Below are positions 46,059-49,621 of a stretch of DNA of 64,000 nt, one piece after another (positions within the stretch are counted from its first letter, which is position 1; each line of letters begins with the position of its first letter). Where the stretch lies: the NCBI RefSeq assembly GCF_046105845.1, contig NZ_CP151004.1, one strand, 5' to 3'. The DNA comes from Escherichia coli (GTDB taxonomy: Bacteria; Pseudomonadota; Gammaproteobacteria; Enterobacterales; Enterobacteriaceae). Below the pieces are notes generated by a model. The model saw nothing but the letters and a program-made list of their open reading frames with translations, ran no database searches and was not told the DNA's origin. The position numbers and the translations under genes were made by a program.

Positions 46059-46256
46059 ATGTCAGAAACTATTACGGTGAATTGCCCAACCTGCGGGAAA
46101 ACGGTGGTGTGGGGTGAAATCAGCCCGTTTCGGCCATTTTGTTCCAAACGTTGCCAGCTGATCGACCTCGGAGAATGGGCTGCTGAAGAAAAACGAATCC
46201 CCAGCAGTGGCGATCTTTCCGAAAGCGATGACTGGAGCGAAGAGCCAAAGCAGTGA
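46059..46256 (+). CDS. yacG: DNA gyrase inhibitor YacG (zinc ribbon)
   Basis: 65-aa ORF with CPTCGK…CSKRC zinc-binding motif. Confidence 0.93.
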
Positions 46257-46265
46257 CATTTTGTC

Positions 46266-46472
46266 TGATGCGACGCTGGCCTGATAAGACGCGGGCAGCG
46301 TCGCATCGGGCATCTTGTGCAAATGTTGGATGCGATGTGAACGCCTTATCCGACCTACAAGACCTTACATATCAACGTGTTAAAATTGTAGATACTGATA
46401 AGACGCGCCAGCGTCGCATCGGGCATCTTGTGCAAATGTTGGATGCGGCATAAACACCTATCCGACGTACAC
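46266..46472. repeat. REP/BIME-type palindromic repeat cluster
   Basis: Contains REP-like units (GGATGCGATGTGAACGCCTTATCCGACCTACA; GGATGCGGCATAAACACCTATCCGACGTACA) and inverted partners, plus a ~53-bp direct repeat (46282..46335 and 46397..46449). Confidence 0.85.
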
Positions 46473-46856
46473 GCGCTTAAGCTTCGCAATTACCGGTTCA
46501 TTGGCTGGCGGAAACTCATCGGCATTAAGACCGACCAGCGACATCCACTTACCGGGTTGCCCTTCTTTACCCCACGGCTCCCCTTCCCAGCTTTCGACCA
46601 GCCAGAACCACAGTGTTATATGCCTGTCCGGGAATTCATATTCCAGTTTTTCAAATAGCGAAAAATGTTGCGGGGTAATCCCGACTTCCTCCTGAAGTTC
46701 ACGCACCACCGCCTGCTCCGGCGTTTCGCCCATTTCAATTTTACCGCCGGGAAACTCCAGTTTATTCGCCATGTGCGCATCTGCTGCGCGACGCGTTATA
46801 AAGATTTCATTGTTCTCGTTGCGAATAATACCTACCGCAATTTGCAGCTTTTTCAT
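46458..46856 (-). CDS. mutT: 8-oxo-dGTP diphosphatase (Nudix)
   Basis: 132-aa ORF with Nudix box (GGKIEMGETPEQAVVRELQEEVGI); last codons and stop lie inside the REP unit. Confidence 0.93.
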   Translation of the reverse strand: MKKLQIAVGIIRNENNEIFITRRAADAHMANKLEFPGGKIEMGETPEQAVVRELQEEVGITPQHFSLFEKLEYEFPDRHITLWFWLVESWEGEPWGKEGQPGKWMSLVGLNADEFPPANEPVIAKLKRVYVG

Positions 46857-46915
46857 TGTCTTAAACCTATAAAAAAGGCGCAGAATCCTGCGCCTTTTAC
46901 TTCAACTGTTAGCTT

Positions 46916-49621
46916 TTATTGCAGGCGACCATGGCACTGCTTGTATTTTTTACCAGAACCGCACGGGCAAGGATCGTTACGTCCTACTTTGCGTTCACCG
47001 GTTTGCGCCGCCAGTGCAGCTGCGGCTGCAGAGTCGTCATCCTGATGGCTAAGCTGCTGCATTTGCGCTAAACGCTCGGCTTCCATACGACGCTGTTGTT
47101 CCAGCTCCTCAACCTCTTCAGGCATACGTACCTGAACTTTGCTCAGCGTGCTGATAACTTCATATTTCAACGACTCCAGCATCGCTGCAAACATGGAGAA
47201 CGATTCACGTTTGTATTCCTGCTTCGGATCTTTCTGTGCATAGCCACGCAGGTGGATACCCTGACGCAGATAGTCCATCGCTGCCAGGTGCTCTTTCCAC
47301 AGAGAGTCGAGAGTTTGCAGCATGACGCCTTTCTCGAAGTGACGCATCATCTCTGCACCAACCACTTCTTCTTTACGCTGATACACTTCGATGGACTGCG
47401 CCAGAATGCGCTCACGCAGCGTCTCTTCATGCAGTTCTGGTTCTTTATCCAGCCACTCAGCAATTGGTAAATCGAGGTCGAAATCGTTCTTCAGACGTTC
47501 CTGCAGCCCCGGAATATCCCACATTTCTTCCAGCGACTGTGGTGGAATGTAGGCATCAATGGTCGCTTTGAACACATCTTCACGAATGCTGTTGATGGTT
47601 TCGCTCACATCGCTGACATCCAGCAGTTCGTTACGCTGGGAGTAAATGGCGCGACGCTGATCGTTAGCCACGTCATCATATTCCAGCAGTTGCTTACGAA
47701 TGTCGAAGTTACGACTTTCAACTTTACGCTGGGCGTTGGCAATCGCTTTAGTCACCCACGGGTGTTCAATGGCTTCGCCTGGCTTCATACCCAGTTTACG
47801 CATCATGCCGGATACTCGGTCGGAAGCAAAAATACGCATCAGCGCATCTTCCATCGACAGGTAGAAACGGGAAGAACCAGCATCCCCCTGACGACCAGAA
47901 CGACCGCGCAACTGGTTATCGATACGACGGGATTCGTGACGCTCGGTACCGATGATATGCAGGCCACCTGCTGCCAGTACCGCATCGTGACGTACCTGCC
48001 AGTCGGCTTTAATTTTTTCAATTTGCTCTGCGGTCGGATTTTCCAGCGCGGCAACTTCTGCCTGCCAGCTACCACCGAGCACAATATCTGTACCACGACC
48101 CGCCATGTTGGTCGCGATAGTCACCGCAGCCGGATAACCTGCCTGAGCAACAATCGCCGCTTCGTTGGCGTGGAATTTGGCGTTCAGGACATTGTGCTTA
48201 ATACCGGCTTTGGTCAGTTCGTTTGACACCAGCTCCGATTTTTCGATGGAGATAGTACCCACCAGCACCGGCTGGCCTTTCGCAGTACGTTCTTTGATAT
48301 CTTCAATGATCGCCTGAATTTTTTCCGCTTCAGTCATGTAGACCAGGTCCGGCAGATCTTTACGAATCATTGGACGGTTGGTCGGAACAACGACGGTATC
48401 CAGCTTGTAGATGGAGCTAAATTCGAAAGCTTCGGTATCAGCAGTACCGGTCATCCCCGCCAGTTTTTCATACAGACGGAAGTAGTTCTGGAAGGTGATC
48501 GACGCCAGCGTCTGGTTTTCGTTCTGGATCTGTACACCTTCTTTCGCTTCCACTGCCTGATGCAGGCCATCGGACCAACGACGTCCCTGCATGGTACGAC
48601 CGGTGTGTTCGTCAACGATGATAACTTCACCATCTTTAACGATGTAGTCGACGTCTCGGGTAAACAGCGCATGAGCGCGCAGCGCCGCCGTTACGTGGTG
48701 CATCAGCATGATGTTGGCCGGAGAGTACAGAGACTCCCCTTCATCCATGATGCCTTCTTTCACCAGCAGTTCTTCAATCAGCACCAGACCACGTTCGGTC
48801 AGGTTCACCTGGCGAGATTTTTCGTCCACCGAGAAGTGGCCTTCGCCCTGGAAGGTTTCGGAGTCTTCTTTTTCCTGACGGATCAGGTGCGGAATAATTT
48901 TATTCACGCGTTTATACATTTCCGAGCTGTCTTCTGCCGGGCCGGAAATGATCAGCGGTGTACGCGCTTCATCGATCAGGATGGAGTCCACTTCGTCCAC
49001 CAGCGCATAGTGCAGTTTACGCTGTACACGTTCTTCAGGGCTGAACGCCATGTTATCGCGCAGGTAGTCAAAGCCGTATTCGTTGTTCGTACCGTAAGTG
49101 ATGTCAGCTGCGTAAGCTTCACGCTTCGCCGGTGCTGGCATGCCCGGCAGGTTGATACCGACAGTCAGGCCAAGGAATTCAAACAGCGGACGGTTGTTTT
49201 CGGCGTCACGTTGCGCCAGGTAGTCGTTGACGGTAACAACGTGTACGCCCTTACCGGTTAATGCGTTCAGGTAAGCAGGCAGCGTTGCGGTCAGGGTTTT
49301 ACCTTCACCGGTACGCATTTCGGCGATGCAGCGTTCGTTAAGAACCATACCGCCGAGTAACTGAACGTCGAAGTGACGCATACCAAAGACGCGCTTACTT
49401 GCCTCACGCACCACGGCGAAAGCTTCCGGGATCAGATTTTCCAGCACTTCGCCTTTTTCCAGACGTGCACGAAACTCTGCGGTTTTCCCTTTCAGTTCTT
49501 CGTCGGAGAGTTTTTCCATCTCCGGTTCCATGGCATTGATGATGTTGACCACTTTGCGCATCCGGCGCAGGGTGCGATCGTTACGACTACCGAAAACTTT
49601 AGTTAATAATTTGATTAGCAT
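46916..49621 (-). CDS. secA: Preprotein translocase ATPase SecA
   Basis: 901-aa ORF recognised as SecA, including C-terminal zinc-binding [14 protein letters not shown]. Confidence 0.98.

Follow-up and report, generated by a model that had tools for sequence, protein, structure and literature searches.

REPs that carry a GTAG tag are associated with RAYT/TnpA-REP. In Escherichia coli, REPs have been described as dual terminator/stabilizer elements of 3′UTRs that are enriched between convergent genes, are all extragenic, and tune expression without a change in coding sequence; the same study reported a large locus-to-locus variance and no general effect on half-life for terminal REPs (bioRxiv 10.64898/2026.03.23.713779). 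E. coli REPs seldom overlap coding regions (PMC12306157), and those located <16 nt from a stop codon down-regulate translation and stall ribosomes, with cleavage of the mRNA and tagging of the encoded protein by tmRNA (Liang, Rudd & Deutscher 2015, as summarized in PMC12306157). In other species, REPs overlap the ends of ORFs, and many of these REP-decorated genes are DNA replication/repair genes (Di Nocera et al. 2013, PMC3733652); the decorations are mostly whole REPs or REP dimers inserted in frame and amount to 20 to 80 aa. REPs are also targeted by IS621, at ATCAGGCCTAC (PMC11208160). We found no relevant literature on a REP that supplies the mutT stop codon, and neither mutT nor yacG appears in the RepRanger supplements.

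Here, we present an analysis of the yacG-mutT spacer in a 64-kb stretch of E. coli DNA (64,000 nt; hereafter, the window). In the window, coaE-zapD-yacG on the + strand are convergent with mutT and secA on the − strand; gene identities were taken from the ORF list of the window and the RefSeq annotation of near-identical loci. The yacG CDS (encoding a DNA gyrase inhibitor; 46059-46256, +) and the mutT CDS (46458-46856, −) are separated by 201 bp, with yacG ending at 46256 and mutT at 46458. This mutT allele encodes a protein of 132 aa that ends KLKRVYVG, and RefSeq contains annotated CDSs of 399 nt that are identical to it (e.g., WP_000736024.1). As proposed in the initial annotation of the region, a REP/BIME cluster lies between the two genes: stringent consensus patterns for Y and Z2 units each have one match in the spacer, compared with 0 expected based on 100 shuffles of the 64-kb window. 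Altogether, the element is an ordinary, textbook REP/BIME, and the neat point is the back-up stop codon that it provides.

The spacer contains four REP units arranged as two Z2-Y pairs located ~113 bp apart with an IHF-core linker between them, in the order Z2(+), 13-nt linker, Y(−), long linker, Z2(+), 13-nt linker, and Y(−). REP1 (46276-46311, +) is of the Z2 type, reads CCTGATAAGACGC GGGCA GCGTCGCATCGGGC, and has a degenerate GTAG position (CTGG), while K-12 has the canonical GTAGGCCTGATAAG at the aligned position. REP2 (46325-46358, −) is of the Y type with one mismatch to the consensus and has a canonical GTAG (CTAC on the + strand, 46355-46358). It is followed by the long head-to-head linker of 29 nt (46359-46387), in which TATCAACGTGTTA at 46370-46382 matches the IHF core consensus. 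REP3 (46388-46424, +) is of the Z2 type, again with one mismatch to the consensus, and its GTAG (46388-46391) is followed by three odd bases and displaced by 3 nt. REP4 (46438-46470, −; GTTGGATGCGGCATAAACACCTATCCGACGTAC) is a degenerate Y-type unit that was delimited by alignment to the Y units of other strains; it differs at several positions from canonical Y units, has GTAC in place of GTAG, and overlaps mutT by 13 nt. All four units can be aligned to units in K-12, which has GTAG at REP1, REP2, and REP4 and TTAG at REP3. The initial annotation had also noted a direct repeat of ~53 bp, and we find one of 51 nt with 90% identity (46296-46346 versus 46409-46459); when the repeats on its flanks (13 and 21 nt) are included, the unit measures ~85 nt and has a period of 113-114 nt.

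In most respects, this array resembles other E. coli REP/BIMEs: Y and Z2 consensus units alternate, the short and long linkers are conserved with an IHF core in the long linker, the element is placed between convergent genes, its number of units is variable, and it is a target of IS621. It differs from them in that the mutT-side unit is not extragenic, with GTAG serving as the ancestral stop codon and 13 nt being translated here, and in that GTAG is lost in two of the four units in the window. With respect to the distinction between BIME-1 and BIME-2, the units in the window are Y/Z2, yet the linker has an IHF core.

The overlap between REP4 and mutT can be read directly from the codons. The stop codon (CTA on the + strand) occupies 46458-46460, followed in the + direction by Gly132 (46461-46463), Val131 (46464-46466), Tyr130 (46467-46469), and Val129 (46470-46472). 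REP4 therefore contributes 13 nt to the CDS, i.e., the stop codon, the codons for Tyr130, Val131, and Gly132, and one base of the codon for Val129, and the claim that MutT owes its C-terminal residues and stop codon to the last REP is borne out, as all of 46458-46470 lies within REP4. The stop codon used here, TAG, belongs to a bulge (GGATAR) in the stem of REP4. The statement in the initial annotation that K-12 MutT has 129 aa and ends KLKRL is likewise correct, RefSeq and PDB being in agreement on this form, and the K-12 stop codon is already REP sequence, namely, the TAG of the GTAG of the REP. Based on the alignment and the outgroups described below, the ancestral stop codon was located at 46467-46469 (−), where the window has TAC (Tyr130), K-12 has TAG, and other Escherichia have TAG or TAA. 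In the mutT sense, the REP consensus reads G-TAG-GNC-GGA-TAA-GG, in which TAG and TAA are in the same frame and 9 nt apart. Loss of the upstream stop codon adds exactly three residues because this second in-frame REP stop codon (GGATAR) is located 9 nt downstream.

The initial annotation had further suggested that a REP-associated rearrangement may have remodeled the C terminus of MutT. Seven E. coli alleles align collinearly across the 3′ end of mutT with no indel at the junction, and the stop codon differs by one base. On the sense strand, the alleles end CTG TAG GTC AGA TAA in K-12, CTG TAG GTC GGA TAA in S56, GTG TAC GTC GGA TAG in the window, GTG TAT GTC GGA TAA in O157:H7, and GTG TAT GTC GAA TAA in SCU-115 and CD306, giving the tail VYVE in the last two. 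Most of the 132-aa forms also have Leu129Val, while the LP5-1 type keeps Leu. As judged from these alignments, the 132-aa form is the product of a point substitution in the stop codon, i.e., loss of the TAG of the REP, and of no rearrangement. As the initial annotation expected, this allele differs from that of K-12, and both the C terminus and the REP arrangement vary among strains; the uniformity across strains that was named there as a refutation is, thus, not observed.

To describe the distribution of the alleles, we counted haplotypes as exact 30-mers in 5,426 complete E. coli genomes, 695 of which fit none of the haplotypes. The 129-aa haplotypes comprise 1788 genomes of the K-12 type and 1305 of the S56 type (at least 57% of the 5,426 genomes), and the 132-aa haplotypes comprise 206 of the window type (TAC), 564 of the O157 type, 582 of the SCU-115 type, and a further 147, 136, and 3 (at least 30%). 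The 132-aa alleles are common and present on several haplotypes. In the outgroups, which were taken from the GTDB species set (E. albertii, E. whittamii, two other Escherichia species, and a divergent E. coli-like genome), MutT has 129 aa in five of five cases, and in all five, the stop codon directly abuts GTCGGATAAGGCG, being TAG (that of the GTAG of the REP) in three and TAA in two. The flush REP and the 129-aa protein are, therefore, ancestral for the genus. The LP5-1 type (CTG TAT; 3 genomes only) is one substitution away from the S56 129-aa haplotype, arguing that it represents a second, independent loss of the stop codon in which the same back-up stop codon came into use; from these sequences, we infer at least two independent stop losses. 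We also considered whether the 129- and 132-aa alleles are connected through the LP5-1 haplotype as a common intermediate and rejected this idea, because this haplotype is present in only three genomes and looks like a separate recent event.

To assess how unusual this overlap is, we checked seven evenly spaced 50-kb segments of MG1655 (350 kb, with ~40 distinct units that match the REP consensus) against the annotation. In this sample, 18 annotated gene ends are located at most 45 nt from a REP stem, with gaps of 6-39 nt, and eight of the 18 are at most 15 nt away; in none of the 18 does a REP overlap the gene end or GTAG serve as the stop codon. The gap at mutT is 0 nt in K-12 and −9 nt in the window, and mutT therefore lies at the extreme of this distribution. 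This result is in line with accounts in which E. coli REPs rarely overlap coding sequence (PMC12306157) or are extragenic throughout (bioRxiv 10.64898/2026.03.23.713779). An apparent case of a GTAG stop codon at 11407-11409 of locus L098 was discarded because the open frame is not annotated. The description of E. coli REPs as extragenic does not hold for the mutT locus, as REP4 overlaps mutT by 13 nt in the window and the overlap in K-12 consists of the TAG of GTAG. As in the stop-proximal REPs of Liang et al. (2015, as summarized in PMC12306157), a hairpin is located at most 15 nt from the stop codons of both mutT (0 or −9 nt) and yacG (5 nt); unlike in those REPs, the mutT stop codon in the window lies within the REP and not upstream of it. 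The locus shares with the REP-decorated ORFs (PMC3733652) that a REP is translated at the end of a CDS and that mutT is a DNA-fidelity gene; however, mutT acquired three residues and a stop codon by stop loss rather than by insertion of whole REPs, and it is polymorphic in this respect within one species.

The use of REP sequence as the end of mutT is not confined to Escherichia. In several Enterobacter species, mutT ends at the GTAG of a different REP (GTAGGCCTGCTAAGCGAAGCGCCAGCAGGC), and in some Citrobacter and Klebsiella, it ends at the GTAG or the GGATAA of their own REPs, suggesting that REP-supplied mutT stop codons are recurrent across Enterobacteriaceae. We identified the cases in Enterobacter and Citrobacter by visual inspection, as automated hairpin calls on 80 Enterobacteriaceae loci were too noisy. 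The loci in which a genus-specific REP provides the end of mutT, through either its GTAG or the GGATAA bulge of its stem, are L046, L056, L059, L060, L070, L071, L076, L079, and L081 in Enterobacter/Lelliottia and L027 and L039 in Citrobacter.

Both strands of the spacer fold much better than shuffled sequences (z = −3.8 in the mutT sense and −7.1 in the yacG sense), and a consensus scan found no intrinsic terminator (GC-rich hairpin plus U tract) in 46257-46457 on either strand. A canonical Y hairpin, with a predicted energy of −19 to −20.5 kcal/mol, begins directly 3′ of the 129-aa stop codon (0 nt), while the 132-aa stop codon is enclosed by the Y hairpin, 9 nt within the stem in its AA bulge. 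In the window, the REP4 hairpin is weaker, at about −12 kcal/mol with an alternative fold, and the canonical hairpin is not the predicted MFE structure; hence, effects that depend on the hairpin may be weaker in this allele. On the other side of the spacer, the first REP-type hairpin, identified as an inverted repeat, is located 5 nt downstream of the TGA stop codon of yacG. Here, an extra partial Z arm (46262-46281) pairs with the right arm of REP1 (46293-46312) over 20 nt with 85% complementarity, and the resulting long hairpin (46262-46312, +) is present in the MFE fold of the yacG-sense strand. K-12 lacks this extra arm near the yacG stop codon and has GATGCCGCACGTAGG where the window (46254-46312) has GATGCGACGCTGG.

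The number of array units in the spacer varies among lineages. We found one unit in S56, O157, MRY15-117, and SCU-115; two in the window, K-12, D10, E. sp. MOD1, and E. whittamii; three in LP5-1; and at least five in E. albertii and E. sp. E1V33. Judging from the alignments, the one-unit forms look like deletions between two Z2 units; they make up ~60% of E. coli strains and lack the long linker and, with it, the IHF core. The K-12-type long linker is present in ~34% of E. coli genomes, and the window-type linker is present in only 130 genomes (2.4%), always once per genome; we therefore rejected the idea that the latter is a generic multicopy motif. The 451-nt arrangement of the window is present at ≥99% identity in only 53 genomes. 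IS621, a bridge-RNA element of the IS110 family, lies within the yacG-mutT REP cluster of E. coli LP5-1 (L093/L102) and of strain 7_14_50A (L094). The LP5-1 array has three units, and the insertion splits the middle Y unit at GACCT^AC, consistent with the known REP target. All four combinations of one or two units with 129 or 132 aa were found, arguing that the changes in unit number and the IS621 rearrangements are decoupled from the stop allele.

Based on these data, our preferred reading, to which we assign a probability of roughly 0.8, is that a resident REP array lies flush with mutT, that a substitution in the stop codon together with the back-up stop codon of the REP gives MutT a REP-encoded tail, and that the array has RNA-level roles by analogy to described REPs. 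In this model, an array of the form [Z2 REP - 13-nt linker - Y REP - IHF-site linker] x n is old in the genus Escherichia and forms the shared 3′ region of the convergent operons coaE-zapD-yacG and secA-mutT. Ancestrally, the mutT-proximal Y REP was flush with the CDS such that the stop codon abutted the stem and, where it was TAG, was the TAG of GTAG. In the lineage of the window, a single substitution from TAG to TAC allows translation to continue through Tyr-Val-Gly to the back-up stop codon, and changes in unit number would have arisen by recombination between the direct repeats. The steps read from sequence are the anatomy of the array, the substitution, the back-up stop codon, the frequencies of the alleles in the population, and the lack of a link between unit number and stop allele. 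By analogy, the REP hairpins may protect the 3′ ends of both operons and/or terminate their transcription in both directions, in part with the help of Rho. Given that the hairpin follows the 129-aa stop codon with a gap of 0 nt and encloses the 132-aa stop codon, termination of mutT translation would be expected to be impeded, and ribosome stalling and tmRNA rescue may keep MutT at a low level; with its stop codon 5 nt from a hairpin, yacG may be subject to the same effect.

Alternatively, a REP-mediated rearrangement, i.e., insertion of a REP, expansion or contraction of the BIME, or gene conversion by another copy of a REP, could have exchanged the end of mutT and thereby given rise to the new C terminus. 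The spacer is recombinogenic, as evidenced by its one, two, three, or at least five units in different lineages and by the IS621 insertions; moreover, one strain has a 7-bp duplication at the stop/REP junction, and the several differences between REP4 and canonical Y units could reflect conversion. However, an alignment of the 129- and 132-aa alleles runs through the junction without an indel and shows a one-base difference at the stop codon, each of them is found with one-unit as well as with two-unit spacers, and on another background, a single C-to-A change has produced the same three-codon extension a second time. We therefore give a rearrangement hardly any credence; reviving conversion would take a donor REP with the exact GTACGTCGGATAGGTG and flanking conversion-tract boundaries. 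A different question is whether the tail, once formed by stop substitution, is adaptive, either through the activity or stability of MutT or because a stop codon within the REP stem alters stalling and MutT abundance, with both classes being kept and tuning the mutation rate. Such a scenario would fit with both classes being frequent (at least 57% and at least 30%), with the recurrence of stop loss, with a reported importance of the distance between a REP and the stop codon for translation (PMC12306157), and with the position of mutT at the extreme of the 18 MG1655 gaps, none of which is an overlap. By contrast, conservation of MutT ends at Leu126 among 30 Enterobacteriaceae sequences, and the tails beyond it have 3-9 aa and are unrelated in sequence, such that length and sequence vary freely across the family; the tail varies even within the 132-aa class (VYVG, VYVE, and LYVG). 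Similarly, in the AlphaFold (AF2) model (pLDDT 90.5), the C-terminal helix spans residues 117-130 and residues 131-132 lie outside of it with a mean pLDDT of 73, so that the extension appears as the end of the terminal helix, and neutral lineage sorting would explain the high frequencies equally well. Because the tail beyond Leu126 is not conserved and the outer residues extend past the helix, the three-residue extension is most likely neutral for the enzyme, and we consider an adaptive tail quite improbable.

It is also conceivable that the main role of the array lies at the level of DNA and the nucleoid, as a BIME that binds IHF, gyrase, or HU or as the source of an naRNA4-like RNA, and that the overlap with mutT is incidental. 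In support of this idea, each long linker that we sampled has retained the IHF core (K-12, D10, E. albertii, E. sp. E1V33, E. sp. MOD1, and E. whittamii), the exception among the Escherichia lineages being the divergent E. coli-like outgroup (L012), in the spacer of which no IHF core was found; in the 64-kb window, the core pattern WATCAANNNNTTR has only four matches on both strands. Moreover, both pairs match the two-hairpin Y-linker-Z2 covariance model of naRNA4/REP325 (Rfam RF02564) end to end: the yacG-side pair (46278-46355, −) scores 57.1 bits (E = 8e−10; model positions 1-77 of 77), and the mutT-side pair (46392-46467, −), the 5′ end of which lies within the mutT CDS, is a weaker full-length match (44.5 bits; E = 5e−7). 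However, neither score reaches the gathering score of 59.5, the array has two units where REP325 has six, and the copy at mutT is located within the 3′UTR and the end of the CDS. Furthermore, the ~60% of E. coli strains with a one-unit spacer do without the IHF core, REP325/naRNA4 caused no measurable nucleoid compaction, and REP-REP contacts are absent (bioRxiv 10.64898/2026.03.23.713779). Altogether, a main role at the DNA level seems unlikely to us, and it would be compatible with the reading of a resident array that supplies the end of mutT.

At this locus, variation in REP sequence changes the end of a protein in about one-third of the sequenced strains, versus the recent description of REPs as strictly extragenic, and the two in-frame stop codons in the REP consensus explain why loss of the first costs exactly three residues. 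The mutator readout of MutT is sensitive. If REP-proximal stop codons throttle translation, then mutT would be a convenient natural allelic series with a stop codon before the hairpin, a stop codon within the hairpin, and a decayed hairpin. A bolder generalization is that REPs are recurrent makers of gene 3′ ends, with GTAG and GGATAA defining a stop codon and its fail-safe and with different REP families at mutT in Escherichia, Citrobacter, and Enterobacter, and that the position of the stop codon relative to the hairpin could set the abundance of MutT, making the 129/132-aa polymorphism a natural modifier of the mutation rate; we offer this highly doubtful idea as speculation.

Several further observations concern the locus and its neighbors. 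USDA-ARS-USMARC-49610 (L091) has a 7-bp tandem duplication (CTGTAGT CTGTAGG) exactly at the mutT stop codon/GTAG; its MutT still has 129 aa, and the duplication could be due to slippage or be the footprint of an element. Upstream of mutT, a match to STnc40, a Salmonella sRNA family in Rfam, scores 81.7 bits compared with a gathering score of 45 (46871-46940, −) and spans the 3′ end of secA and a hairpin between secA and mutT (AAAAGGCGCAGGATTCTGCGCCTTTTTT, − strand). By eye, this hairpin is terminator-like, and it is absent from the output of the consensus terminator scan. Given such a hairpin, mutT may need read-through or a promoter of its own, and the transcription input into mutT itself is, therefore, uncertain. 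Strain 100181 (locus L090, 1-507) has two annotated yacG CDSs located ~180 bp apart, one full-length but interrupted by the boundary of the locus and the other 186 nt long, suggesting a local duplication upstream of the REP cluster. Finally, the very low-coverage 424-nt contig QXHL01000193.1 (L021), which is labeled Alicyclobacillaceae bacterium I2511, encodes a Salmonella-like MutT with the tail RKLRQFAP and is probably an enterobacterial contamination of that assembly.
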